A stretch of 64,000 bases of DNA from a virus. Positions 1-64,000 of the stretch are shown in pieces. The notes beneath the pieces are model-generated. The model saw only the letters and a program-made list of their open reading frames with translations, was not told where the DNA came from and ran no database searches. The DNA lies in the IMG/VR virus record IMGVR_UViG_3300045988_165036, positions 70,153 to 134,152 of that record; one strand, given 5' to 3'. Each line of letters opens with the position of its first letter. Position 1 is the stretch's first letter. A program made the translations under genes and the position numbers.

Positions 1-1134
1 ATTCAATTGACTTTTGAGTGTGAAAATCAAACGCAAGAAATTTCTCTCGGAGTTGATGCTGGAAGTAAACACATTGGCATTTCTGCAACAACAGAGAAAC
101 AAGTTTTGTATGAAGCAGACGTTGAATTAAGAAACGATATCGTAGATAAACTCTCTTCTCGTAGAGAAGCAAGAAGAACGAGAAGAAACAGATTGAGATA
201 TCGTCCCACAAGATTCAACAATCGAGTTCATTCAAAACACAAAGGTTGGCTTGCTCCAAGCATCGAGCAGAAAATCAATTCGCATATTCAGGCAATCAAA
301 AGACTTCATCAAATTCTTCCGATTTCAAAAATTATTGTGGAAACGGCGCAGTTTGATATTCAAAAAATTCAGAATCCAGATATTGAAGGAGAACAATATC
401 AACAAGGTGATCAAATGGGGTTTTGGAATGTACGTGAATATGTGCTTTTCAGAGATGATCACAAGTGTCAGTATTGTAAAGGAAAATCTAAAGACAATCG
501 ATTAAATGTTCATCATATTGAGGGTCGTAAGACGGGCGGAAACGCTCCGAATAATTTAATTACGTTGTGCGAAACCTGCCATAATGATTATCATCAAGGG
601 AAAATTCAGCTAAATATTAAGCGCGGAAAGAGCTTTCGAGATGCGACATTTATGGGCATTATGAGAAAGACATTGTTGTTGAGATTAAGGGAAATATATC
701 CGAATGTTCAAGAAACTTTTGGTTATATTACGAAGAACACCAGAATTGAAAATAGTCTTCCGAAAGAACATTATATAGACGCAAGATGTATTAGTGGAAA
801 TCCTTTAGCAAAACCGTTAGGATATTATCTTTATTAAAAATGTGTTAGAAGACAAAATCGTAAAATGACGAAAGATAATTTTATCAGAGGTGGAGTTAAA
901 AAAAGTAATCAGTTAGTTGGCGATGTCTTCGGATTTGGGTTATTTGATACGGTTGAATATCAAAAGAAGAAGTATTTTGTGTTTGGTAAACGAAAATCTG
1001 GATTTCTGGACATTAGAACACTTGATGGAGAAAAAGCTAACAACGGCTCTATAAGCTACAAAAAACTAAAATTAATTCAAAAGAATAATAATATATTAAC
1101 AGAAAGGAGTTTGTCAATTCCTACGCAACCATAA
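1..1134 (+). pseudogene. iscB: IscB-like OMEGA nuclease (RuvC-I, RRXRR bridge helix, HNH, RuvC-III, C-terminal TID-like tail). The 5' end is cut by the window edge, and there is one in-frame TAA at 835-837.
   Basis: ORFs 7-837 and 865-1134 share one frame and are separated only by TAA. Motifs seen: GVDAGSKHIG, RREARRTRRNRLRYR, IIVETAQFD, CQYC..NVHH..N..CETCH, HYIDA, then RRQNRK...GKRKSGF. The frame is open to position 1. Confidence 0.7.
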
Positions 1135-1440: not shown

Positions 1441-2649
1441 TTGTTGACTTTTATAAGAAAGGTGAAAGCGATTATAAAAACAATTCGAGTAATGTTGCTT
1501 CCAAACAACAAACAGCAAACTAAATTATTTCAATATGCCAATACTGCTCGTTTTGCTTATAACTGGGCAATAGGAAGAGAACAAGAAAATTATAAGAATG
1601 GTGGAAAATTTATATCTGATGGAGACTTACGAAAAGAGTTTACACAATTAAAGAAAACTTCTGAATATGCGTGGCTAAACAATGTTTCTAACAATGTAAC
1701 AAAGCAAGCAATTAAAGATGCTTGTGAGGCGTACAAAAATTTCTTTAAGGGAATTACAAAGTCCCCACGATTTAAGAGTAAGAAATATTCAATGCCGAAA
1801 TTCTACCAAGATAATGTAAGAATTCAGTTTACAGACACACATGTAAAGATTGAGGGTTTTGCTACGTCTAAGAAAAAGAATAAGCAAAGACTTAACTGGA
1901 TAAGACTTGCCGAACGCGGAAGAACACCTATTGGAAATACAAAGTATATGAATCCACGCATTAAATATGATGGACTTAATTGGTATATCACAGTTGGAAT
2001 TGAATACGAAAATTCTACCGCTCCTCCAACCAACGAAGGTGTTGGAATCGATTTAGGCATTAAAGATTTGGCAATATGTTCTGACAAGAACAAGTATCAG
2101 AATATAAACAAAACCCAAAGAGTTAAGAAGTTAGAAAAAAGAAAGCGCAGGCTACAACGTTCCATATCAAGAAAATATGAGAATAATAAGAAAGGAGAGC
2201 GTTACTGCAAAACAAGCAATATTATAAAAAGTGAAAAAGAACTTTTAAAATTGAATCACAGACTAACGAATATTCGTCAGAACTACCTACATCAAACAAC
2301 ATCTGAAATTGTAAAACGAAAACCAAGTTTTATCTGTATGGAAGATTTGAATGTGAGTGGAATGATGAAGAATAAACATTTGTCTAAAGCAGTTCAGCAA
2401 CAAGGGTTTTATGAATTTAGGAGACAGATTGAATATAAGTCTGAGTGGAATAACATTCCAGTAATTATAGCAGATAGATTCTTCCCGAGTTCTAAGTTAT
2501 GTAGTTGTTGTGGAAATATCAAAAAGGATTTGAAACTTAGCGACCGCATTTACAAGTGTGAATGTGGAAATATCATAGATAGAGATTATCAAGCAAGTCT
2601 AAATCTGAAAAGACATGGAGAAATGTTATTAGAACAATCTGCATTATAA
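1441..2649 (+). CDS. tnpB: TnpB RNA-guided nuclease (IS200/IS605 OrfB family), copy 1. Probable start is GTG 1462.
   Basis: N-terminal IRVMLLPNNKQQ..FAYNWA. RuvC motifs GIDLGIKD, CMEDLNV, DRDYQASLN. Zinc finger CSCCG..CECG. Confidence 0.9.
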   Translation: MLTFIRKVKAIIKTIRVMLLPNNKQQTKLFQYANTARFAYNWAIGREQENYKNGGKFISDGDLRKEFTQLKKTSEYAWLNNVSNNVTKQAIKDACEAYKNFFKGITKSPRFKSKKYSMPKFYQDNVRIQFTDTHVKIEGFATSKKKNKQRLNWIRLAERGRTPIGNTKYMNPRIKYDGLNWYITVGIEYENSTAPPTNEGVGIDLGIKDLAICSDKNKYQNINKTQRVKKLEKRKRRLQRSISRKYENNKKGERYCKTSNIIKSEKELLKLNHRLTNIRQNYLHQTTSEIVKRKPSFICMEDLNVSGMMKNKHLSKAVQQQGFYEFRRQIEYKSEWNNIPVIIADRFFPSSKLCSCCGNIKKDLKLSDRIYKCECGNIIDRDYQASLNLKRHGEMLLEQSAL

Positions 2650-2818
2650 CACTTTCAAGTTAATGCAGATATGTACTGGCACGTTAGTCAGGAATTTACG
2701 CCTATAGAGTGTACAAGAACTTGTGAGTAGTATATCAGAAATGATTACAAAAGCATATACGATGAAATAGGAATGAAACATAAAAGTTTATAACTTTTTA
2801 TAAGTTTTCAGTAACGGA
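2500..2818 (+). ncRNA. Candidate omega/reRNA scaffold of tnpB copy 1. The guide would start at 2819 and overlap the primase start codon.
   Basis: Position overlaps the 3' end of tnpB plus a 170-nt ORF-free tail. The tail ends in ..CAGTAACGG, like the ..CACAACGG end of the copy-4 element. The boundary is inferred. Confidence 0.35.
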
Positions 2819-2825
2819 AGCCACG

Positions 2826-3836
2826 ATGCTCACAGATGTTAAACAAATGTTAATAGAAAACCCAGAGCACATCGTGGAATTGCTCGAAAGGTTTGAGTTC
2901 TGCCACATCCATCTCAAACGAACAGAAATTCGGTTTGCCCGTAACGAAGAAGGTGGTCAGAACATCTCAATTCGGCTCGAAGATAATCCTTCAATTTATG
3001 TTAAAGATTTCGTAACAAATGAGAACGGCGACATTATCGCGTATATAATGAAAAGTCGTTCGGTGAAGTTTGTCGAAGTCTTGTCGGAAATCAAGAGCGT
3101 TCTCGGGCTTGGAGACGATTGGGAGCCCCCAAAGCGCGATATGTTGTTCGGTGGATTTTATGACCGAATTGGAGAGGATAGACATATTGAGATTACGACG
3201 TATCCCGAATCGATTATGGACCAATATGTCGATAAGGGAAATCGGCGCTGGCTCGATGATAACATTTCACTTGCGGTTCAGCACGAGTTCGGGGTCAGAT
3301 TTGACCCGATAGAAGACCTGATTGTGTTTCCGTGGAGGTCGCCCGTCGGAGGAGAGATTATCGCAGTAAAAGCTCGCGTTAATCACCCGTTGGAAGATGG
3401 TCAACAGAAATATTGGTATGTTTACAAGGGCGCCGTCAGTAATTCTCTTTATGGTATTATGGAGAATTATAGCGGACTGTTTGGAAACGAAATTTGTGTT
3501 GTTGAAAGCGAAAAAGCCGTCCAGCAACTGGCGACAATGGGATATCGAAACACAGTGGCTCTTGGGTCGAGCAATTTGTCAGAGGAGCAGGCTCGGCTAA
3601 TTATGACGCTTTCTCCGACTTCCGTTGTGTTCTTGTTGGACGAAGGACTGGAAAAGGAACACACGATGAAAAATGTGGAAACATTGCGTCAGTATTGCGT
3701 ATTAAGAGATTTGCCGATTCGTTGGTGGAATTGGACGAAAAGCTCGGTTGTTGATGGGAGCGGGAAGAATAGTCCGACCGATTTGGGGAAAGAGAGGTTT
3801 GACAAGGTTATGAGAGAGGAGCTAGAAGTGATTTAA
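2826..3836 (+). CDS. DnaG-like Toprim primase
   Basis: Toprim-like VVESEKAVQQL ... VVFLLDEGLEKE. Sits directly upstream of the polymerase. Confidence 0.6.
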   Translation: MLTDVKQMLIENPEHIVELLERFEFCHIHLKRTEIRFARNEEGGQNISIRLEDNPSIYVKDFVTNENGDIIAYIMKSRSVKFVEVLSEIKSVLGLGDDWEPPKRDMLFGGFYDRIGEDRHIEITTYPESIMDQYVDKGNRRWLDDNISLAVQHEFGVRFDPIEDLIVFPWRSPVGGEIIAVKARVNHPLEDGQQKYWYVYKGAVSNSLYGIMENYSGLFGNEICVVESEKAVQQLATMGYRNTVALGSSNLSEEQARLIMTLSPTSVVFLLDEGLEKEHTMKNVETLRQYCVLRDLPIRWWNWTKSSVVDGSGKNSPTDLGKERFDKVMREELEVI

Positions 3837-4795
3837 TGGGCGCATTTAAAGATATAACTGGACAGCAATTCGGAGACTTCATCATCGACTCTTTTGACCC
3901 GACAAAAGGTAAGTATAAATATTATTGGAATTGTCATTGTGTAAAATGTGGTTATAAAAAATCAGTAGAAGGAAGCAGTATTAGAGCCGGAAATAGTACA
4001 AGATGTATTTGTGATAAGTCTTTTGGACGAAGAGAAAGTCTCGGATACGAAAAAGATATATCTGGAAAAGTTTATGGTGGTTTAACTGTTTTGGGCTATT
4101 GCGACACGAAAAGCACACGTTCAAGATGGCTGTGTAAATGCAATTGTGGGAACGAGGAAGTTTTTAGTATTTCACAATTAAAAAGAAGAAAAAATCTGAT
4201 GTGTTCCCAATGTGTGGAAAAATATAAAGATATAAGAAATGTGATTTCAGAAGAAAATTTAGACTCTAATGGGATTCCAATAAATATTGTTCAATCTACT
4301 CAAAGAAAACAAAACAAATATGAAATTCAAAACGATGAGACTATTATCAACGATAAAATTATTGTAGATAGTAAGTTTATGGATTGTTTGAAATCATTCG
4401 ATAGATACATTAGTATAGACAGCCGTGGATATGCATATTTTTCATATTGTGGTCAAGATGTATATTTACACAGACTTTTGACAAACACCTCATTATTTTT
4501 CGATACGAATGGCAAAGACATAGAAATAATCGATCATATAAACAGAAATAGATGCGATAACAGAATTGAAAATTTAAGAACGATTAAAAAATCTGAAAAC
4601 TCCATCAATTGTTCAGTATATTCAAATAATAAAAGTGGGTATAAAGGTATTTCTTGGCTTGAAAGATTACAAAAATGGCAAGTGAACATTCAATACAGAA
4701 AGATAAATTATTATGTTGGCGTGTTTGAAAATATTGATGATGCAATTTTAGCAAGAAAACGAGCAGAAATGGATTTATTTGGAAAGGTGAATTAA
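3836..4795 (+). CDS. Free-standing HNH homing endonuclease with an AP2-like C-terminal domain
   Basis: DHINRNRCDNRIENLR..K.EN (HNH), then YKGISW...WQVNI..YVGVF...A..AR (AP2-like). Confidence 0.7.
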   Translation: MGAFKDITGQQFGDFIIDSFDPTKGKYKYYWNCHCVKCGYKKSVEGSSIRAGNSTRCICDKSFGRRESLGYEKDISGKVYGGLTVLGYCDTKSTRSRWLCKCNCGNEEVFSISQLKRRKNLMCSQCVEKYKDIRNVISEENLDSNGIPINIVQSTQRKQNKYEIQNDETIINDKIIVDSKFMDCLKSFDRYISIDSRGYAYFSYCGQDVYLHRLLTNTSLFFDTNGKDIEIIDHINRNRCDNRIENLRTIKKSENSINCSVYSNNKSGYKGISWLERLQKWQVNIQYRKINYYVGVFENIDDAILARKRAEMDLFGKVN

Positions 4796-4797
4796 AA

Positions 4798-7700
4798 ATG
4801 CAAAATCTTCATCGGCATACTTCGTATTCAAATGTTTGTATTGCAGATTCTGCGGCAACAAATGAACAATATGCCAAAAGAGCGGTAGAATTGGGTCACA
4901 AAGTAATTAGTAGCGTCGAGCACGGGTGGCAGGGATATTATTATCAATGTTATGAACTTGCTCAAAAATATAATCTCAAATTTGTTTTTGGAGCAGAGGC
5001 ATATTGGGTAAAAGACAGGAAAAAAGAATATGAAGAAATTGATCCATTGACAGGAGAACCGTTAAAAAATAAAGACGGAACAATAAAGGCGCATAAAGAT
5101 AACTCTAATTGTCATATATTACTTCTTGCAAAAACAGAAATCGGAAGACGCGCCATCAACAAAATTCTTTCAGAGGCAAACGAAACGGGGTATTATTTTA
5201 GACCCCGTGTCGATCTCGAACTTCTTCTTTCCCTCCCTCCTGACGATGTGGTCGTAACAACTGCTTGTGTGGCATATTGGAAATATGAAGATATCGAAGA
5301 TATTACTCTTCGGTTGTGGAAACATTTTGGAAAAAACTTTTATCTGGAGATCCAAGCGCATAAAACAGAACAACAGAGAGAAATCTCCCGTAGAATTCTT
5401 TCCTTGTCGCGAAGATATGGAATTGAAATGATTGTTGGTCTTGACAGTCATTACATTTATCCGGAACAGGCACAGGAGAGAGAATATATTCTTGAAGCAA
5501 AAGACGTCCATTATAAAGACGAAGAGGGGTGGTATATGGACTATCCCGACGACGAAGAGGTTATGAGACGTTTTATGGAGCAAGGAGTTTTTACAAGGGA
5601 ACAGGTTCAAAGAGCGATGGATAACACGGACATCTCTCTAACGTTTGATGATTATGCAAAAGACAATCCTGTTTTCAGCAAAGATATTAAACTTCCTACT
5701 CTTTATCCGAATCTTTCACAAGAAGAAAGAAACAAAAAATATAGTGTTCTGATTAGTAAGCTTTTTAGAGAGTATGCAGAGAAACATCACATTACGGGAG
5801 AAGAGTATAAGAGATATCTTGAAGGAATCAAAATGGAAGTTCAGACGGTTAAAGATACCGGAATGGCCGATTACTTCCTTCTCGACTATGAAATCGTCAA
5901 AAGAGCGATTGAAAAAGGGGGCGTTTTGACAGACAGTGGAAGAGGATGTTTTACGTCTGACGCAATGGCTTTAACGATGGGCGGAATCAAACATATTAAC
6001 GAAGTTAAAGTTGGAGATTTTGTAATAGATCAAAACGGAAATCCGCAAAAAGTTGTTAACACAATGGAATATGATTGCGATGAGGAAATAGTTCAACTTC
6101 TTTATGCATATGGACCAAATACTCATAATCCATTGATTTGCACAAAAGATCACAAGATCTTGATTCATAGAAACGGGCAAAATTCTTGGATTGAAGCCGG
6201 GAAAATTCAGCAAGGAGACTATGTTTGTTCTCCGAAAATTCATTTCGAAAATCGAGCACCTGAATATATTGATTTAAATGATTATAATGTTTTTGGGTAT
6301 GATTTTGACGACGAATACATTTACGAATATCGTCCAGCTGCAAATGGTGTTGTTGAATTTAACTCCATTGATGTTTCTAAACACATTGGATGTTCCAAGC
6401 CGTGGGTTTTGCAAGTCGTTAAAAATCCTAATCGCACGAAGTTTAAGCATCCCGAATATGTGGACAGATTATTGAAATATACCGGATTTAGTTCTCTTCA
6501 AGAATATAGGGATTATTTAAAAAACTCTCATGTTATCAAGATTAAGAGATTTATAAAAAACGACGAGCTGTTCAACACGTGGATTGGTATGATGTATGGC
6601 GATGGATGGGTTCGCGGCGCGAAAGAATCTACAGAGGTTGGAATGGCGTTTTCTACCTATGGACACAAACAGTCTTACAACAGAGAGATTTGTATTAAAA
6701 TGATCGAACGTTTTGGTGCTCCGTATAATTGTGCCATCCATAAAACAAAACAATTGGAACAAATTATTATGAAGAGCCGCATCGTTAATGAATTTTGTAA
6801 AAATTTTCTATTCACAAGTAAGAAGGGAAAGGCAAAAATCTTTAATCAAGATTTATTTTATCAATCCGAAAATAACTTAAGCGCGCTATTAAACGGTTTA
6901 ACGATTACTGATGGGAGCATGGGAAAAGAAAAAAGAAGAGACAGCTTTGACAACACGTCTCAAAGCATTGTTGGAGCATATAAAATTTTAGTGTCGGCAG
7001 TCTCTCCTTGCCCCACAAGTCTGCTTGTCAGAAACGCATACGAAGATAGTAGAGGATATCATTCTCAGACTGGTTATAAAATAAGAGTTATGAAAGATAC
7101 GGACACTCATGTGCTTTCGGCGTATAGAACTCTTTCTGACAACAACTATGTTTATCTTCCTGTTTCTCAAATTAAGGCAATTGAGAAAAGCAAACGAAAA
7201 GTATATGACATTACCGTTGAAAATTCCCACAGTTATGTATTAGATAGCATAGTTGTTCATAATTCATCAGTTGGATATTTCACAAACACTCTTCTTGGTT
7301 TTTCAAAAGTCGATAGATTTCAAAGTCCGATAACTCTTTATCCTGAACGATTTATTAGTAAAACAAGAATTCTAGAAACCCATTCTCTTCCAGATATTGA
7401 TATGAACTGGGGAACCCCCGAAATTGCAGAAGAAGCACAGAAAGAAATTCTTGGAGACGACCACGCAATTCCAATGATCGCCTTCGGAACCTGTAAAAAG
7501 AAGTCGGCGTTTAAATTGTTCGCTCGTTCTCAAAATATGGATTTCGAACTGGCAAACACCATCTCTTCGCAAATTGCAGATTATGAAGAAGCAGTTAAAA
7601 ACGCAGAAGATGATGATAAAGATCAGATTGATATTTATGATTTTGTAGATAAAAAATATTCCAACTATATTGAACAGAGCAAAAAGTATTGGGGCATTAT

Positions 7701-9402
7701 TATGGATAAGAAGAAAGCTCCTTGTGCCTTTCTTCTTTATCAAGGCAATATCCGAGAAGAAATTGGTCTGATTAAATGTAAGTCGGAATCAACAGGAAAA
7801 GAATTTTTAACAGCCGTTGTAGACGGAGCGATTGCAGAAAATTATAAATTTCTAAAAAACGATATTCTTTGTGTAAGTATTGTTCTTTTGGTTGATAAGA
7901 TTTATCGTAGAATTGGAATTCCGCACAAAACGGTTGAAGAACTGAAAGATTTCGTTAAAAACGATCCAAAAACTTGGGACATTTATAAAAACGGATATAC
8001 TCTTGGGGTTAATCAGTGTGAGCAAGTAAGTTCTGCAAAGAAAATGATGCGCTTTCAAGCAAAAAACATTTCAGAACTTTCGGCGTGGATTGCCGCAATT
8101 CGCCCTGCTTTCAAGTCGATGTACTCCAAGTTTGAATCGAGGGAATCTTTTAGTTATGGAATTCCTGCCTTTGACAAACTCCTACAGACAGAAGAACTTC
8201 CGCAGTCGTGGATTTTGTATCAGGAGCAGTCGATGTCTGTTCTTTCGTATGCAGGATTTCCGATGGATGAATGTTATGGAATCATAAAGGCAATTGCTAA
8301 AAAACACCCCGAAAAGGTTCGTCCGTTGAAGGATAGATTTATCGAAGGATTCAAAAAGAGGATTGTTACAGAGGAAGGAATTGAAGAAACTCAAGCGCAG
8401 GAAATGAGCGAACGGGTTTGGCAAATCATCAACGACTCTTGCGGGTACGGTTTCAATTCTGCTCACGCATATTGTATGGCAATCGATAGTCTTTCTTGCG
8501 CAATGTTGAAAGCGAATTATCCATACGAATTTTATGAGGTGCTTTTACAGTTCCATTCAGATAGAGGAGAAAAAGATAAGGTTGGCGCTCTAAAAGCGGA
8601 AATGAAAAAGGCTTTTGGAATTCAAGAAGGTCCATATCGATTTGGAGAAGATAACCGAAAGTTTAATGCAATTCCGGAAAGAGGAATTATTCAACCGTCT
8701 CTCTTGTCAATTAAGGGATTGAGTCAGGATTTGGCAAACGACCTTTATGAACTTTCTAAAACAAAACGATTCGATAATTTTATAGACCTGTTGAGAGAAT
8801 TCGATCATATGAAATCAATGAATGTTGCGAAGTTGGATACATTGATTAAACTCAATTATTTCTCGCAATTCGCACCTATTGGAAAACTTCTGAACATTGT
8901 CGAGCTCTATAATAAGTTCGGAACCAGCAAAACACTCAAAGAATCTGACGTTTTGTCTCTTCCAACGCCTATTCAAGAAGTTATTGCAAAATATACCGTT
9001 AAACCGAAAACACAGTATAAAATCACAGATAGCGACGGAATGCTCCGGGAACTCGCGGGGTTGGTTGGAGAACGCCCGATTACGATGATGATGCGGCTGG
9101 AATGGGAGCAACAGTATTTGGGTTATTGCGCTTCTACCGACCCATCGCAACAGGGAAGTTGGTTAGTTCTGGACGCCGATACTAAATATTCTCCGAAGTT
9201 GACAATTTTTTCTATTTGGAGTGGAGAACAGCGTGTTGTTAAAGTCTCGAAGCGCGACTTCCAATCCAATCCTCTCACCAAAGGTGATACAATTCGTCTG
9301 ACTATCGAACAACGTCCGAAGGCGAAGCTCGTAGATGGACAGTGGGTTAAGGACGAAAACGTTAAAGAAGATTGGCTAAAATATTATTCAATTGTAAAGT
9401 AA
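4798..9402 (+). CDS. dnaE: DNA polymerase III alpha-type replicase (PHP + DnaE core) interrupted by an intein
   Basis: PHP N-terminus HRHTSYS..VEHG. The GRG|SSVGYF junction corresponds to the DnaE GRGSAAGS motif. Overall size and order match DnaE. Confidence 0.9.
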   Translation: MQNLHRHTSYSNVCIADSAATNEQYAKRAVELGHKVISSVEHGWQGYYYQCYELAQKYNLKFVFGAEAYWVKDRKKEYEEIDPLTGEPLKNKDGTIKAHKDNSNCHILLLAKTEIGRRAINKILSEANETGYYFRPRVDLELLLSLPPDDVVVTTACVAYWKYEDIEDITLRLWKHFGKNFYLEIQAHKTEQQREISRRILSLSRRYGIEMIVGLDSHYIYPEQAQEREYILEAKDVHYKDEEGWYMDYPDDEEVMRRFMEQGVFTREQVQRAMDNTDISLTFDDYAKDNPVFSKDIKLPTLYPNLSQEERNKKYSVLISKLFREYAEKHHITGEEYKRYLEGIKMEVQTVKDTGMADYFLLDYEIVKRAIEKGGVLTDSGRGCFTSDAMALTMGGIKHINEVKVGDFVIDQNGNPQKVVNTMEYDCDEEIVQLLYAYGPNTHNPLICTKDHKILIHRNGQNSWIEAGKIQQGDYVCSPKIHFENRAPEYIDLNDYNVFGYDFDDEYIYEYRPAANGVVEFNSIDVSKHIGCSKPWVLQVVKNPNRTKFKHPEYVDRLLKYTGFSSLQEYRDYLKNSHVIKIKRFIKNDELFNTWIGMMYGDGWVRGAKESTEVGMAFSTYGHKQSYNREICIKMIERFGAPYNCAIHKTKQLEQIIMKSRIVNEFCKNFLFTSKKGKAKIFNQDLFYQSENNLSALLNGLTITDGSMGKEKRRDSFDNTSQSIVGAYKILVSAVSPCPTSLLVRNAYEDSRGYHSQTGYKIRVMKDTDTHVLSAYRTLSDNNYVYLPVSQIKAIEKSKRKVYDITVENSHSYVLDSIVVHNSSVGYFTNTLLGFSKVDRFQSPITLYPERFISKTRILETHSLPDIDMNWGTPEIAEEAQKEILGDDHAIPMIAFGTCKKKSAFKLFARSQNMDFELANTISSQIADYEEAVKNAEDDDKDQIDIYDFVDKKYSNYIEQSKKYWGIIMDKKKAPCAFLLYQGNIREEIGLIKCKSESTGKEFLTAVVDGAIAENYKFLKNDILCVSIVLLVDKIYRRIGIPHKTVEELKDFVKNDPKTWDIYKNGYTLGVNQCEQVSSAKKMMRFQAKNISELSAWIAAIRPAFKSMYSKFESRESFSYGIPAFDKLLQTEELPQSWILYQEQSMSVLSYAGFPMDECYGIIKAIAKKHPEKVRPLKDRFIEGFKKRIVTEEGIEETQAQEMSERVWQIINDSCGYGFNSAHAYCMAIDSLSCAMLKANYPYEFYEVLLQFHSDRGEKDKVGALKAEMKKAFGIQEGPYRFGEDNRKFNAIPERGIIQPSLLSIKGLSQDLANDLYELSKTKRFDNFIDLLREFDHMKSMNVAKLDTLIKLNYFSQFAPIGKLLNIVELYNKFGTSKTLKESDVLSLPTPIQEVIAKYTVKPKTQYKITDSDGMLRELAGLVGERPITMMMRLEWEQQYLGYCASTDPSQQGSWLVLDADTKYSPKLTIFSIWSGEQRVVKVSKRDFQSNPLTKGDTIRLTIEQRPKAKLVDGQWVKDENVKEDWLKYYSIVK
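5947..7263 (+). mobile_element. Intein (439 aa) with a LAGLIDADG homing endonuclease
   Basis: Starts at Cys (GRG|CFTSDAMAL) and ends VVHN|S. Two LAGLIDADG-like blocks: WIGMMYGDGW and LLNGLTITDGS. Confidence 0.85.
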
Positions 9403-33214: not shown

Positions 33215-33296
33215 GGCTCCGTGGCGAAATCGGTAAACGCATCCGATTTAAGATCGGATACCTGTGGGTTTAAGGGTTCGAATCCCTTCGGAGCTA
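33215..33296 (+). tRNA. tRNA-Leu (anticodon UAA), class II with a long variable arm
   Basis: Hand-folded: acceptor GGCTCCG/CGGAGCT, anticodon arm TCCGA-TTTAAGA-TCGGA, variable stem ACC/GGT, T-arm AAGGG-TTCGAAT-CCCTT. Confidence 0.8.
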
Positions 33297-34160: not shown

Positions 34161-34237
34161 TGTCGAGTAGCCAAGCGGTAAAGGTGACTGGTTTTGACCC
34201 AGTTATTACGTAGATTCGAATCCTGCCTCGACAGCCA
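34161..34237 (+). tRNA. tRNA-Gln (anticodon UUG), CCA encoded
   Basis: Acceptor TGTCGAG/CTCGACA (U1:A72, as in E. coli tRNA-Gln), anticodon arm ACTGG-TTTTGAC-CCAGT, T-loop TTCGAAT with an A:C closing pair. Confidence 0.7.
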
Positions 34238-57556: not shown

Positions 57557-57632
57557 GCCTTTTTAGTTCAGTTGGTGGAACGTTTGACTGTTAATCAAAA
57601 TGTCGTTGGTTCGAGTCCAGCAAAAGGCGCCA
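57557..57632 (+). tRNA. tRNA-Asn (anticodon GUU), CCA encoded
   Basis: Canonical 76-nt cloverleaf folded by hand: GCCTTTT/AAAAGGC, GTTC..GAAC, TTTGA-CTGTTAA-TCAAA, GTTGG-TTCGAGT-CCAGC. Confidence 0.85.
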
Positions 57633-59499: not shown

Positions 59500-60798
59500 A
59501 TGATTTATAAGAAGCGTGTTGGCGATCGGAAGTATGTTGGAAACAAACCTCCAGAACCACCAGCATTAAAATACCAGTCGATGGAGCTTTTTGACAAACC
59601 TCGTAAACAGGCGGTTTGCGATTGCTGCACGACAACCAGAACAATTGAAGAATTTCCATATGTTTCCGGCGCAGACATTTATGTGGTAGGGGAAAATGGG
59701 CGCAGAAGAGCAACATTTTGTATGTATTGCTGCGTTAAGTTTTGCGAGCGTATGGAAGAAAAATATGGAAACCAATATAAAGCATTATATAGATTATGTG
59801 CCTTTATCGGTCTGTATTATGACGACGCCCTTGCACACCGCGTATGGGAAGAAGATAGGGAATATGAGAACGGAGAAAAAGTAAGTGAATTTATTTCTCC
59901 GTATGAACTATATATAAGAGCTGTTCAAGACGATCCTCGACTTGAACGTAAATCGTTTATGGATGAAGGAGATGTGCCGTTTGAATACATCGTTCAAAAG
60001 CAGCGCAACCTTTCTATAACGGAAGAACTATCAGAGCAGGGGCGCAGAGACAGACAGGAAATAATGGAGAAATTCCACTACGACCCCTTTGAAAAAGAAC
60101 CGGCAAAAGACAGAGGAAGGTTGTATGCCGACCTCGTAACACTTTACGATGACGCAATGGCAACAGACCTTGTTCGTCAGCGTGCGGCAATTGAGGTTGT
60201 TAAATCTTTTTATCGAATCGATACGATTGGTCAAACGATTCAGGAACTTCAGGCGTCGCCGCAATTAATGGTTGACAACGCAAAGGTTTTGAAAGACCTA
60301 ATTGATCAAAAATCAAAAGAGACGGCAATGGTTACGTCGTTCTCCAAAGACCACGGATTCGCAGAGCGTTATCAGACCGGTAAAACAAAAGGCGCTGGTA
60401 CGTTGTCGAGTGTTGTCAGAGATGGCTTCTATAACCACTTCGACAAGTTGGCTGTTAATAAGTTTGATATCGAAACTTCGAACGCAATGAGACAGGTGGC
60501 AGATATTAGTGCCGCTTCGATGATGAATCAAATTCAGTTATCAAGTGACGATTTCCGCAAGATGGTGGAAGAACAAGCAGAAAAGATTAGAGAACTAACA
60601 GAACAGGTTGCGGAGTTGTCCGAAGCAAACCGGCTGTTTAAAGAAAAAGAAATCAAACAGCAGCTTCTGGATGAATATGTTAAAGATCTGAAAGAGAAGG
60701 GAATTACTGATAATGAGGTAATTAGAGAAGCCGTCAAAAAAGCGCAAACTAAAACATATTATCCGAAAGACGGATTGACGGATGGTGATGGACAATGA
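59500..60798 (+). CDS. Hypothetical protein immediately upstream of terL (terS candidate by position only)
   Basis: ATGA overlap with the terL start. Confidence 0.4.
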   Translation: MIYKKRVGDRKYVGNKPPEPPALKYQSMELFDKPRKQAVCDCCTTTRTIEEFPYVSGADIYVVGENGRRRATFCMYCCVKFCERMEEKYGNQYKALYRLCAFIGLYYDDALAHRVWEEDREYENGEKVSEFISPYELYIRAVQDDPRLERKSFMDEGDVPFEYIVQKQRNLSITEELSEQGRRDRQEIMEKFHYDPFEKEPAKDRGRLYADLVTLYDDAMATDLVRQRAAIEVVKSFYRIDTIGQTIQELQASPQLMVDNAKVLKDLIDQKSKETAMVTSFSKDHGFAERYQTGKTKGAGTLSSVVRDGFYNHFDKLAVNKFDIETSNAMRQVADISAASMMNQIQLSSDDFRKMVEEQAEKIRELTEQVAELSEANRLFKEKEIKQQLLDEYVKDLKEKGITDNEVIREAVKKAQTKTYYPKDGLTDGDGQ

Positions 60799-60942
60799 TT
60801 TCGGTTTATAATAAAAAGTCAAATGTCGAAATCAACGCCCGTCGCTTGGAGCAACTTGAACAATGGGGTTCAATTATTCAATACGGGAGGCAAAACCCCG
60901 TTTGGTTTATTGAACAAATTTTGGGATGTCCGTTATTAGACT
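60795..60942 (+). CDS. terL: Terminase large subunit, exon 1
   Basis: ..WFIEQILGCPLLD, then the first base of a Tyr codon. Confidence 0.65.
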
Positions 60943-62695
60943 TAGATGTTTGTTACAAATAGGTCGCTTACACAGAAATGTGTTTGAATAATAATCTATC
61001 GAAATGCTGGAACTTCGTAAAGCTTACATACCAAAGCAAAGTGATGAAAAACGCACAGGTGTGATGGTTGCGAAAGCGTAAAAAAGTTGTGAGATGGAGT
61101 ATGGTTAAATCCTAACCTCTGTATAAAAATCGAAAATCAGCAGGAAAGCCCCGAAAAGGGGAATCCTCAACGACTAGAACGAAAGTTCGTAGCCAACAAG
61201 TGATTGGTTGGCGAAGTGGTAGACGTCCATTGTAGTGGACGAAGATATAGTCTGCGCTCATATGAAAGTATGAGGTGGTTTTAATAGTCACAGAACAGGA
61301 GTAGCGTCCTGTATAACTAAACCGATATAATTGCGGGACAGAGGGTAGCCCCCTTTGTTGAATTGCTGGTAACAATTTAACTTACCGCATTTATATATTT
61401 TACACTGACTTTTTACCAGAAAGGAGGTGCAACGATGATTAAGTCTTTTAAAATTAGATTATTCCCAACAAAAGAACAAGAAGAATTAATGTGGAAACAC
61501 GTTAATTCGTGCAGATTTATTTGGAATTACATGCTCGAAAAACAGATTTCGAGAGAAAACAATAATGAGAAACCTTTATCGGCATATGATATGATAAATT
61601 TGATATCTCCGATGAAACAACAAAAAGAGTTTGAGTGGTTAAAAGATGTGTCCAATAGCAGTTTGTGTAAAACTTGCTTAGATTTAGGTAGCGCGTTTTC
61701 TAGATTTTTTAAAAAGCAAAATAGATTTCCGAAATTTAAATCGAAAAAGAACCAAAGACACTCTTGTCCCGCTAGAAACGAACGTCTTTATTTTATTGAT
61801 GACAGTAGGTTGTTTATTGAAAAAATCGGTAAAATTAAATATAAATCTGATTTAAGTTTTTCAAAAGATCAAAGATTTTTGAATGTTAGATTAATTGAAA
61901 ATATGGGAAAATGGTTTGTCTATTTTGTAATGAAGTGCGAGAATCAAGCACCGGTTTTGACAGATAAGCCAATGGGAATAGATTTAGGAATAAAAGAGAC
62001 TATGGTAGTCGCTTATGGTAATGAGTCTATAATCTTTCACAATATAAATAAAAGTAAAAAAGTGAGAGAATTAAAGAAAAGAATTCGTAATTTACAAAGA
62101 GTGATTTCTCGTAAATACGAAGCGAATCGTGTGGGCAAAAAATACATTAAAACCAATAATATTATAAAATTGGAGAATAAATTAAGAAAATTGTACGCGC
62201 GATTGAACGGAATCCGATATAATTATATTCATCAGTGTACTCATAACCTTATTTCATTATTGCCTTGTAGAGTCGTAATGGAAGATTTAAATGTTATGGG
62301 AATGATGAAAAATAAACATCTTTCAAAAGCAATACAAGAACAGTGCTTTTGTGAGATAATTCGGCAAATGAAATATAAGTGTGAATGGAATGGAATACCA
62401 TTTATACAAGTAGATAGGTTTTATCCAAGTAGTAAAACCTGTTCTTGTTGTGGTACTATTAATAAAAGATTAACACTTTCTGACAGAACTTTTATTTGTC
62501 CAGAATGCGGATTTACAATTGATAGAGATTACCAAGCGGCGCTTAATTTAATGAGATACGAAGTTTAATTACAGAGACTTCGGTCTTGAGGTATCGTTGT
62601 ACCTTTATGCTGTGGAGCGTCATATAAACTTAAGTAGCTTTATGCGAAAGAGGACGCTGTGAATCAGTGAGTTTAGTTTTTTCTAAACACAACGG
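60943..62695 (+). mobile_element. IStron: group I intron core (about 60943-61400) + tnpB + 3' omega-RNA / 3' splice-site region
   Basis: See the first finding (60943-62695). Confidence 0.7.
61435..62568 (+). CDS. tnpB: TnpB RNA-guided nuclease, copy 4 (inside the terL intron)
   Basis: IKSFKIRLFPT..CRFIWNY; [24 protein letters not shown]; CSCCG..CPECG. Confidence 0.9.
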   Translation: MIKSFKIRLFPTKEQEELMWKHVNSCRFIWNYMLEKQISRENNNEKPLSAYDMINLISPMKQQKEFEWLKDVSNSSLCKTCLDLGSAFSRFFKKQNRFPKFKSKKNQRHSCPARNERLYFIDDSRLFIEKIGKIKYKSDLSFSKDQRFLNVRLIENMGKWFVYFVMKCENQAPVLTDKPMGIDLGIKETMVVAYGNESIIFHNINKSKKVRELKKRIRNLQRVISRKYEANRVGKKYIKTNNIIKLENKLRKLYARLNGIRYNYIHQCTHNLISLLPCRVVMEDLNVMGMMKNKHLSKAIQEQCFCEIIRQMKYKCEWNGIPFIQVDRFYPSSKTCSCCGTINKRLTLSDRTFICPECGFTIDRDYQAALNLMRYEV

Positions 62696-64000
62696 ACCAG
62701 AAGTTTATGATTATGGGCGGCTGGACTGCTCAAAAGGCAATATATGTTCAATCGCGTGGTAGTGGTAAATCTTTCGTTGCTTCGCTAATTATTATGGCGA
62801 AAACAATTCTCTATCCGGCATATTCCGCATATATTATGGCTCCGACTGCTCGTCAGTCGAATGAATTGTTCAACAAGATCAAAGACATTGCGCTCCACAA
62901 CATTCAAACTCTCGCAGGAAACGATGTGTTTTTGGGAGAAACCGTTAAAACGAACGGTAATGCAACTGGTTTCGTAACTGCGTCAGGAGACCCACACGTT
63001 GATTTATACAATGGTTCGAGTATTACGGCGCTGAACGGTAGCCCGAAGGGACTTGTGTCAATGCGTTCTTCTGGAAACTTTTATGATGAGGCAGGAAAGC
63101 TGTCTTACGACTTCTTTAGCTTAACAGAGCCGTTTACAATCGTTAGTTCTGACTTCCGCGCCGGAGTTGATCCGGAGGTATATCCAAAGAATGTTCCGAA
63201 CCAATGTTATTACTTTTCTTCCGCCGAAGATACAAGCACATATTTGTGGCAGTTATATCGCGACGGAGCGAAGAGAATGGCGATGGGTTTTACTGATTAT
63301 TTTGTTTGCGATATTAGCTGTCAAATGCCGCTGCATCCGACAATGAACGGAAAGCCGTATACGCCGCTTTTCCCGAAGGAAGACGTGGATGCCGCAATGC
63401 GTTCCAATGAATATAGAGCGAAACGTGAGTATTACAACCTGTTTGACCTTACGGGCGGAGTTGACAATATCGTTTCTAACGACAGTATTTATCGAAACGA
63501 AAAGCAATATTTACCTCTCACAACCAATCCAGATCCAAAATCCGGAAAGAAATATATTATTACAATCGACCCTGCGCATCAGATTGATAACTCTTTTTGT
63601 CTGATTACAGAAGTTTGGAAAGATAAAGAAAAGGGCTGGATGGGTCGTTTTGTGAACGGTTACAATATGATAAAATTATTGCCGAACGGCGATAAAAAAT
63701 TATATACGATGCCGGAGGCGGTTGAATTTATCAAAGAGGTTATGGTTTGTTACAACGGTGCCGCCCCTGATTGGGAAAACATTATTCTATTTGTTGAACC
63801 CGGTTCTGGTGGAGGCGGCTTGATGATTGCCGACTTCTTGCGACAGGATTGGGTTGATAAAAATGGAAAACAGCATCGTGGCGTTATCGATATGCAAGAT
63901 GAAAATAGTGCAAAAGAAAGATTTAATTATCCAAACGCGATTGAAGATGTTCTGCATCTTTATACACCGCAAAAGTTTAAAAATTCGATGTTTGCCGCGC
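62696..64000 (+). CDS. terL: Terminase large subunit, exon 2 (continues beyond the window; absent from the supplied ORF track)
   Basis: Stop-free from 62677 to 64000. (Y)QKFMIMGGW, Walker A SRGSGKS, Walker B NFYDEAG, nuclease ITIDPAHQ. Confidence 0.8.

Follow-up and report, generated by a model that had tools for sequence, protein, structure and literature searches.

The large-terminase gene terL is interrupted by an insertion in the 64,000-nucleotide stretch analyzed here (hereafter the window), which comprises positions 70,153 to 134,152 of the IMG/VR virus record IMGVR_UViG_3300045988_165036. The window is phage DNA, encoding a DNA polymerase, a helicase, exonucleases and three tRNAs. The interruption, at window positions 60943-62695, raises the question of what the inserted element is, how an essential packaging gene could tolerate it, and by what route it reached its site. 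A first-pass annotation, made from the letters alone, had proposed that the element is an IStron, in which a group I intron carries a tnpB gene, that terL is rescued by splicing, and that TnpB promotes homing of the element into intron-less terL alleles. Comparative sequence analysis confirms that the element is real and that it is an IStron splitting terL. We consider it likely that this element, a non-autonomous IStron without tnpA whose TnpB belongs to the IS607/RAGATH-18 class, is both spliced and mobilized by TnpB in the way proposed.

An IStron splits terL

The annotated start of terL at 60795, where its ATG overlaps the TGA of the upstream open reading frame (ORF; 59500-60798), was upheld. 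Exon 1 ends in ILGCPLLD, and reading on into the element gives L-D-V-C-Y-K and then the stop codon TAG at 60960-60962, which lies inside the guide sequence of the intron's P1 helix. As also claimed, an open frame begins at 62677 and continues past the end of the window. With T60942 joined to A62696, the reading frame continues as PLLD-Y-QKFMIMGGW; the base immediately before the intron is T, the final intron base is G62695, and the predicted splice junction reads ...CCGTTATTAGACT joined to ACCAGAAGTTTATG.

The conceptual spliced TerL comprises 484 amino acids in the window and matches phrog_2 (terminase large subunit, E = 1.6e-22). Among the 147 relatives found, most are 560-650 amino acids long and cover 100% of the spliced query, and more than 100 intron-less homologues are colinear with it without a gap. 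The first-pass annotation had suggested aligning the spliced protein to intron-less homologues; in an alignment with 18 of the relatives (34-97% identity) the junction is free of gaps, D49 and Q51 show almost no variation, and position 50 is occupied by Y or F. Because the Tyr50 codon is kept in all homologues, the T before the intron must be exonic. The protein sequence encoded by exon 2 shares 97% identity with relatives. These comparisons indicate that splicing would restore terL.

A different reading of the locus is that TerL genuinely starts at the methionine of MIMGGW and that the upstream peptide is unrelated. This is not borne out, as the colinear intron-less homologues all carry the 49-residue N-terminal peptide. 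The sole homologue starting at the corresponding position (MILGGW) is P0002, of 513 amino acids, from contig L001 (L numbers denote related loci). In L001, the exon-1 sequence is contiguous and directly upstream of P0002, and the site is intact (...CTCGATT/ACCAGAAG...); the short gene call results from an in-frame TAA upstream. This TAA, at L001 positions 136-138, corresponds to TTA in the window and lies three codons 5' of the insertion site. L001 is the closest intron-less terL allele (97% amino acid identity), and its TAA could reflect an assembly error, a defective phage or another cause. Empty terL sites at exactly the position of the element occur in L001, L002, L069, L070, L071 and L072, and target duplication is absent.

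The group I ribozyme

A scan of 2.2 kb with Rfam covariance models, as the first-pass annotation had advised, gave matches above threshold to both Intron_gpI and RAGATH-18. The Intron_gpI (RF00028) match spans 60941-61274 and the full model (positions 1-253), with a score of 70.6 bits against a gathering threshold of 50 (E = 2.4e-17). Scans of the whole 64-kb window in gathering-threshold and E-value modes missed this same intron. Long P5 insertions together with speed filters hide such introns from large Rfam scans; thus, the lack of a match in a large scan does not equate to absence, given that an intron scoring 70.6 bits was missed there. The J8/7 string GA[AT]GATATAGTC served as a second screen.

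RNAalifold predicts 74 base pairs for nine related ribozymes, 44 of them with compensatory double changes, and recovers P2, P3, P4, P5, P6, P8 and P9. P7 is uninformative for covariation because it is invariant. With scores that exceed curated thresholds and with strong covariation, the ribozyme match is not due to chance. The P8-like and J8/7-P7 strings picked out from the letters lie in the core (Table 1). The "AGAC/GTCT P7" was misassigned, however, since AGAC at 61220-61223 forms part of the 3' strand of P3. The P1 pairing was recognized correctly: GACUUA pairs with UAGGUC, with a wobble between U60942 and G60962 at the splice site, and this 6-base-pair (bp) helix is the unconstrained minimum-free-energy fold of 60931-60968 (-8.0 kcal/mol).

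Near-relative ribozymes with the same P2 and J8/7 strings occur in L045, L048, L050, L052 and L054 without a TnpB-sized ORF (at least 300 amino acids) in the 2.2 kb downstream or within the locus, the L052 and L054 loci ending ~0.6-0.9 kb past the motif. These RNAs suggest gain and loss of nuclease cargo. A scan of the element for promoters and terminators gave counts that were not usefully above shuffled expectation.

TnpB and its predicted guide RNA

The tnpB product matches the Pfam families HTH_OrfB_IS605, OrfB_IS605 and Cas12f1-like_TNB and the NCBIfam model "RNA-guided endonuclease TnpB" (E = 4.5e-89), and has at least 7989 relatives at E <= 1e-30. Its best solved relative is 8IAZ_A (E = 6.9e-60), which we take to be the ISFba1 IS607 TnpB. 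The gene is intact, as had been stated: the RuvC residues D183, E283 and D365 and the zinc-finger cysteines C336/C339 and C355/C358 are all present. It is also open in all eight copies compared, and the ratio of nonsynonymous to synonymous substitution rates (dN/dS) between the window and L003 is 0.08. Thus, tnpB is under purifying selection. No other ORF is present in 60943-62695, and neither the IS607-type serine recombinase (ORF A) nor a remnant of it was found there.

The 127 nucleotides after tnpB had been predicted to be the guide-RNA scaffold; they do contain an above-threshold RAGATH-18 match, and this adjoins the 3' splice site. The 3' end ...AACGG is common to 13 related elements, whose sequences are unrelated beyond it; one of these is the second, intron-less TnpB element of the window.

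The segment AGGUGCAACGAU, which covers the Shine-Dalgarno sequence and AUG of tnpB, is complementary to 62593-62604 at 12 of 12 positions (inverted repeat I18), and the resulting helix would close the tnpB ORF as a loop. The predicted energy of this long-range duplex is -25.5 kcal/mol, versus -6.0 for the competing local hairpin. The helix is also predicted in seven relatives of the IStron clade (z from -3.3 to -7.6 versus windows of their own ORFs), and in L019 it has a compensatory change from G-C to A-U. It is not predicted in the second, intron-less TnpB element of the window, in the IStron of phage c-st, or in L018. In addition, UCGUUG in the loop of hairpin 2 can pair with the conserved end CAACGG; this pairing probably corresponds to the scaffold pseudoknot known for TnpB guide RNAs (PMC10690162). 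The RNA may therefore adopt three mutually exclusive states: an ORF-closing helix that would be competent for splicing and would keep translation off, a local hairpin with pseudoknot that would form the guide RNA, and an open state that would permit translation. Such exclusive pairings would fit the "antagonistic conflict" that has been reported between splicing and the production of guide RNA.

Table 1. Coordinates of the IStron, its parts and other features of the window
Feature	Position	Strand	Remarks
terL exon 1	60795..60942	+	49 codons and first base of the Tyr50 codon
P1 hairpin	60939..60965	+	GACU/UA 60939-60944, splice after U60942; internal guide sequence UAGGUC 60960-60965
Whole IStron	60943..62695	+	1753 nucleotides; group I intron, tnpB and guide-RNA scaffold, without tnpA
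Group I core	60968..61276	+	RF00028 match and RNAalifold
P2	60970-60983	+	motif coordinates
P3	60995-61001 / 61217-61223	+	motif coordinates
P7	61172-61176 / 61248-61252	+	GACUA / UAGUC; motif coordinates
P8	61225-61240	+	GTCCATTGTAGTGGAC; motif coordinates
J8/7	61241-61247	+	with P7 3' strand, GAAGATATAGTCTG at 61241-61254; motif coordinates
P9	61257-61274	+	motif coordinates
Spacer, core to tnpB	61277..61434	+	158 nucleotides; Shine-Dalgarno AAAGGAGGTG 61420-61429; 94-100% identical among three sister IStrons
Predicted long-range helix, 5' arm	61425..61436	+	AGGUGCAACGAU; covers Shine-Dalgarno and tnpB AUG
tnpB	61435..62568	+	377 amino acids; IS607/RAGATH-18 class; Pfam and NCBIfam
Variable tnpB cassette	61500..61940	+	codons ~23-172; N-terminal TID/REC lobe
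Guide-RNA (reRNA / omega-RNA) scaffold	62569..62695	+	127 nucleotides; RF03064
Scaffold hairpin 1	62574-62587	+	
Scaffold hairpin 2	62589-62604	+	loop and 3' arm 62593-62604 also serve as 3' arm of the predicted long-range helix
RAGATH-18	62609-62670	+	Rfam RF03064; 55.8 bits, threshold 44.9
Terminal hairpin	62671-62688	+	GTTTAG/CTAAAC, 6 bp
Conserved end CAACGG	62690-62695	+	G62695 is the terminal intron G; ...CACAACGG at 62688-62695
terL exon 2	62696..64000	+	runs past window end; Walker A SRGSGKS and other terminase motifs
Predicted guide of unspliced transcripts	62696..62715	+	first 20 nucleotides of exon 2, ACCAGAAGTTTATGATTATG
tRNA genes	33215-33296, 34161-34234, 57557-57629	+	

Relationship to known IStrons and TnpB elements

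The general organization is that of an IStron: a 5' group I ribozyme is followed by a TnpB ORF in the same orientation, the ends coincide with the predicted splice sites, removal restores an ORF without target duplication, and the scaffold at the 3' end adjoins the 3' splice site. A CGG terminus and an IS607-type ORF B define the "group B" IStrons of Tourasse (PMC4227781). These include BcISt1 of the Bacillus cereus group, CbISt3 and CbISt4 of the Clostridium botulinum phages c-st and D-1873, and the CboIStron of Zedaveinyte et al. (PMC4227781, PMC10690162). By its TnpB and guide RNA, the window element is of IS607 type and closest to group B, sharing with it the 5' ribozyme, the class of TnpB, the scaffold that ends with CGG at the 3' splice site, the lack of target-site duplication, the presence in phage genomes and the existence of tnpA-less copies. 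Its TnpB is 51% identical to that of the c-st group B copy (L039).

Nevertheless, the element is inserted after AGACT (flank ...TTAGACT) and not after a GG-ending site (AGGG, TGGG or GAGG). Its last exon base is a U within a continuous P1, whereas group B has a G followed by an internal loop. The 3' hairpin has 6 bp, compared with group B stems of 15-34 bp that are >80% AU (L033, L039 and L041 have long stems), and an IS607-type tnpA or its remnant is lacking. The predicted long-range helix between Shine-Dalgarno sequence and scaffold, which the c-st element lacks, and the location in terL are further differences from group B.

Other traits recall the IS200/IS605-type group A IStrons, such as CdISt1 of Clostridioides difficile (PMC4227781): the canonical U at the 5' splice site in P1, the short balanced 3' hairpin, and the lack of tnpA, as TnpB-only copies are common in group A. 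However, the flank TAGACT is not a group A target (TTGAT, ATTAT or TTTAT), the end is ACGG (CGG) instead of TCAG, the guide RNA is of RAGATH-18 type, and the TnpB shares only 29% identity with the group A TnpB of L043. The group A target and the TCAG end are indeed present in true group A elements of relatives. Because the GG-ending target, the group B P1, the long 3' stem, tnpA and the group A features are all missing, the element cannot be assigned cleanly to either of the published groups.

The guide RNAs ("reRNAs") of IS607-family TnpBs are built around a RAGATH-18 core (Ren et al. 2024, PMC11061315). This class is recognized by a TnpB of ~380-390 amino acids, an intact RuvC triad and a downstream RAGATH-18, and the window element, whose TnpB has 377 amino acids, conforms to it. 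As in ISFba1 (PMC11061315; 8IAZ), the RAGATH-18 core lies 40 nucleotides after the stop codon and the scaffold is outside the coding sequence. The window TnpB differs from that of ISFba1 in being embedded in an intron, in its flank (AGACT, compared with the target-adjacent motifs (TAMs) AGGAG or GAGGG), and in the residues at TAM-contacting positions, which are not conserved.

A further comparison is with phage group I introns that bear homing endonuclease genes, including term-IVS1 and term-IVS2 in the large-terminase genes of Bacillus cereus prophages (PMC2504315). Those introns likewise reside in an essential phage gene, have a stop codon at or soon after the intron start, exist as homologous introns with different P1 domains per site, and are expected to spread by homing in mixed infections. 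Their nuclease, however, is a protein-only homing endonuclease, whereas that of the IStron is RNA guided (TnpB plus scaffold), so that its target would be specified by the 3' exon itself together with a short TAM.

Related copies in terL and in other late genes

The same element occupies the same terL site in at least three other samples: L003, L004 (Logan, 95.7% nucleotide identity) and L043/L053 (99.1%; IMG/VR UViG_3300045988_158589). Its presence or absence is polymorphic among phages that are 97-99% identical.

Copies with a 76% identical TnpB occur in pig-gut phage contigs beside homologues of YomW, YomV and YomU, a neighborhood suggestive of a structural module like that of SPbeta. The gene split in L005-L013 is yomX-like, and the element there follows ...GCTCAGTAT. 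Splicing would give a product of 375 amino acids, colinear with homologues that are intact (P0241, 95% identical, 984 member sequences), and L065-L068 contain empty yomX-like sites. In L014, a yomW-like gene is split after ...TTTTAAGAT, and the product is colinear with an intact protein of 223 amino acids. For L005, a splice site after GAGTAT, in intergenic sequence, was considered and rejected, as in-frame analysis and intact homologues place it after CAGTAT at position 3497 within the yomX-like gene. The splice positions derived from P1 and from the reading frame in L015 are one base apart. No tnpA was seen adjoining any copy examined. For annotation, these copies mean that the split terL, yomX-like and yomW-like genes of such phages are called as fragments, with P0002 as an example.

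Several relatives carry IStrons of group A. In L002, where the window site is empty, terL (TerL 84% identical) is split near codon 460 by an element at 6030-7869 that follows TTTAAT, ends with GGTTCAG, has a group I match of 59.2 bits and encodes a TnpB of 366 amino acids. L009 contains a RAGATH-18-type element in its yomX-like gene (3498-5269) and a group A element in its yomW-like gene (~5870-7718), ~600 nucleotides apart, and both are present in L010 and L011 as well. Window position 60222/60223, within ORF 59500-60798, is a precise empty site for the group A (IS605-type) IStron of L043, whose junctions are ...ATCGAT/TAAACAAA...GGTTCAG/ACGATTGG. L043 is 96-99% identical to the window and thus carries two IStrons of different classes 720 nucleotides apart in adjacent genes.

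A constant backbone with two divergent cassettes

The elements in terL, the yomX-like gene and the yomW-like gene are 94-100% identical over 60982-61472 and 61958-62695 (window coordinates). Two blocks diverge, with about 36-68% identity in all three pairwise comparisons: the first ~40 nucleotides, which contain the P1 loop and guide sequence, and the tnpB segment ~61500-61940. Taken as the P1 region and tnpB codons ~23-172, these blocks are about 45-60% identical. TnpB residues 23-172 share 43-47% identity between sisters, compared with 96% for residues 173-377. When the terL and yomX-like copies are compared, dS is 1.57 and dN is 0.48 in the cassette (alignment columns 23-175, window codons ~23-172), whereas dS is 0.10-0.12 and dN is 0.018 in the rest of tnpB. 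The difference in dS argues that the cassette was replaced by recombination with distant alleles instead of evolving rapidly in place.

TAM contacts of the ISFba1 TnpB are made by N61, N62, K80, K83, Y117, N121, N122 and S160 (PMC11061315). All are N-terminal of D194, which aligns with D183 of the window protein; thus, the variable block corresponds to the TAM-reading TID/REC1 lobe. The other variable block matches the insertion site. In all three sister elements, the end of the 5' exon is matched by the guide sequence of the element inserted there: GACU in terL by (UA)GGUC, GUAU in the yomX-like gene (L005) by (UG)GUAC, and AAGAU in the yomW-like gene (L014) by GUCUU. Because the last exon bases serve both as P1 partner and as TAM (PMC10690162, PMC13565253), joint exchange of the two readers of these bases would be the simplest explanation for the mosaic.

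The 5' exon ends in the family are AGACT, AGTAT, AGAGT (twice), AGGCT, AGAAC and AGAAT, and the exceptions are AAGAT, AAGTT, TGGGT, TGGTT, and TTGGC or ATGGT. A candidate TAM consistent with many of these is AGNNT, which shares A at -5 and G at -4 with the published AGGAG; the flank AGACT shares these two bases with AGGAG and nothing further. We also tried to read TAM specificity from the ISFba1 contacts, as a pairwise alignment showed N122 kept and N121 replaced by R. This was dropped, because a multiple alignment places these residues in an ISFba1-specific insertion.

In our small sample, every intron-less allele differs from the intron-bearing allele in the last five exon bases. The intron-less flanks are CGATT, GGACT, GGATT, AGATT and TGACT for terL, AATAC for the yomX-like gene and AAAAT for the yomW-like gene, and most intron-less alleles have two to six mismatches to the guide. 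The terL allele of L071 combines AGATT with two mismatches, and the yomW-like allele of L065, with AAAAT, is a perfect target. These differences could reflect resistant alleles, co-adaptation between exon and P1, or ordinary divergence.

Proposed mechanism and alternatives

According to the model that we favor, transcription of terL would pass through the element, and the 5' 334 nucleotides would fold into the group I ribozyme, whose UAGGUC pairs with exon GACU to place a U-G pair at the splice site. The helix between the tnpB ribosome-binding site and scaffold hairpin 2 would loop out the ORF and bring G62695 near the catalytic core. Self-splicing would then join 60942 to 62696 and restore terL. 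Transcripts that remain unspliced would supply TnpB and a guide RNA, with 62569-62695 as scaffold and the first ~16-20 nucleotides of exon 2 as guide. TnpB with this RNA could cut the intron-less terL of co-infecting or resident relatives that have a permissive 5' motif (candidate AGNNT), and repair from the intron-bearing copy would insert the element, which amounts to intron homing. New sites would be reached when two matched cassettes are swapped on a constant backbone, one being the P1 guide sequence and the other the TAM lobe of TnpB.

Several observations weigh against this model. An alternative 7-bp P1, in which the guide sequence pairs with 60946-60951, is given by the Rfam alignment and preferred by a naive maximum-pair search. 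It would place the splice at ~60950 and yield a product that is out of frame or three residues longer, and was rejected because colinearity with all homologues is obtained only with the splice at 60942. A P10 pairing between the guide-sequence region and exon 2 was sought, and none was convincing. The scaffold extends only 25 nucleotides 3' of RAGATH-18, compared with 64 in ISFba1, making guide-RNA competence putative. The flank AGACT matches none of the published RAGATH-18/IS607 TnpB TAMs (AGGAG, GAGGG, TGGG), and AGNNT holds in only 7 of the 12 family members examined. The residues that contact the TAM in ISFba1 are not conserved in the window TnpB, some of them falling in an ISFba1-specific insertion. 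Finally, an intron-less yomW-like allele with a 20/20 target match to the sister guide coexists in the same sample series. Cleavage is thus not sweeping all alleles; that allele differs at flank position -3.

A more ambitious proposal, which we put forward tentatively and which may well prove wrong, is that the backbone is a retargetable RNA-guided homing intron specialized for phages. It would colonize essential late genes (terL, yomX-like and yomW-like) by exchange of matched "address" cassettes, of which the ribozyme guide sequence has to pair with the end of the 5' exon and the TnpB TAM lobe has to recognize those bases as DNA. The guide would update itself from the 3' exon, and TnpB would achieve homing, and perhaps also the exclusion of intron-less competitors, in mixed infections without a transposase.

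It is unlikely that the element is instead an immobile passenger, a spliced and near-neutral relic that is inherited vertically and whose TnpB either does not cut or finds no permissive TAM at terL. Such a relic would explain the element's lack of tnpA, as TnpA-less IStrons are non-autonomous (PMC10690162), its shortened 3' scaffold, a flank unlike published TAMs (PMC11061315, PMC10690162), and the coexistence of intron-less alleles, one of them a perfect target. It would not be expected, however, to keep tnpB intact in every copy compared, with a dN/dS of 0.08 in the terL lineage, or to retain the catalytic triad, the zinc finger, RAGATH-18 and the ...CAACGG end alike. Furthermore, near-identical backbones in three genes and polymorphism among 97-99% identical phages imply recent movement.

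That movement might not require TnpB. The element could spread through reverse splicing followed by reverse transcription and recombination, or through an IS607 TnpA acting in trans, with TnpB only maintaining copies. Group I introns can reverse-splice (PMC4227781), the apparent target requirement resembles a short P1 complement (4-6 nucleotides) that differs by site, and another IS607-type element resides in the same genome (window 1441-2817). We nevertheless judge this route improbable, and somewhat more so than an immobile passenger. The GG core dinucleotide on which IS607 TnpA strictly depends (PMC10690162) is missing from the junctions, which read CT/TA on the left and GG/AC on the right, no tnpA lies beside any copy seen, and reverse splicing leaves the joint exchange of TAM lobe and guide sequence unexplained. 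Lastly, the in-frame TAA in terL of L001 might hint at defective prophages in which the insertion simply breaks terL and is not removed from RNA, but this is very hard to reconcile with an above-threshold, strongly covarying ribozyme, with two exons that are open, in phase and (exon 2) 97% identical in protein to relatives, and with recurrence of the arrangement in independent samples and three essential late genes.

Previous work and significance

Parts of this picture are already known. IStrons of two groups, including copies in the C. botulinum phages c-st and D-1873, have been described (PMC4227781), and the coincidence of transposon ends, splice sites and the scaffold/guide junction has been studied experimentally, along with the competition between splicing and guide RNA (PMC10690162, PMC13521648). 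The first-pass annotation thus overstated the novelty of a phage IStron and of a 3' splice site that equals the guide boundary (PMC4227781, PMC10690162). Prophage terminase genes that contain group I introns are likewise on record, as are homologous introns whose P1 differs from site to site (PMC2504315). Spread of TnpA-less IStrons by intron homing is a published hypothesis, and a 2026 review states that intron homing by TnpB "awaits experimental validation" (PMC13565253). Zedaveinyte et al. report "numerous" independent intron-associated tnpB clades (PMC10690162), and the present clade may already be within their unpublished trees. Our literature search, which was incomplete in coverage, found no paper with an IStron in a terminase gene or with a paired cassette exchange.

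IStrons are, to our knowledge, the one place where the same bases encode a ribozyme, a transposon end and a guide RNA. This lineage provides a natural test bed for how they spread after transposase loss: its elements lack tnpA, keep a TnpB under purifying selection, reside in essential late genes and show presence/absence polymorphism, and among three near-identical backbones the differences are confined to the P1 guide sequence and the TAM lobe of TnpB. Should the cassette pairing be functional, an RNA helix and a protein domain would both read one short DNA motif and be re-specified together, and the family would supply natural TAM variants on a constant, compact nuclease scaffold (377 amino acids). 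The main value added here is comparative, comprising recent mobility among late genes of one phage lineage and an architecture of backbone plus address cassettes. With such an architecture, direct tests of TnpB-driven intron homing and of TAM re-specification become possible.

Phage context and other elements in the window

The only match of the window to cultured phages by megablast is an 80-nucleotide tnpB match in Staphylococcus phages, and tblastn with TerL found no cultured relative above 30% identity. Lacking a close cultured match, the phage is considered uncultured. Its lineage is crowded with selfish elements, namely an IscB gene, a second TnpB element and an HNH ORF in the window, and group A IStrons in relatives.

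The IscB gene (NCBIfam NF040563, E = 1.2e-91) occupies window positions 7-1134 on the + strand and is truncated at the start of the window. Its frame is interrupted by a TAA at 835-837, after which it continues with an IscB-like C-terminus to a TAA at 1132-1134, indicative of a pseudogene or of readthrough. The second TnpB element (1441-2817, + strand) has an ORF of 402 amino acids and a RAGATH-18 match at 2701-2773 (69.4 bits) without a group I intron, and it ends with GTAACGG at 2817, 8 nucleotides before the ATG of a primase-like ORF. An HNH endonuclease ORF at 3836-4795 on the + strand (phrog_99, E = 3e-35), located between the primase-like gene and a DNA polymerase gene of 1534 codons, may be another homing element.

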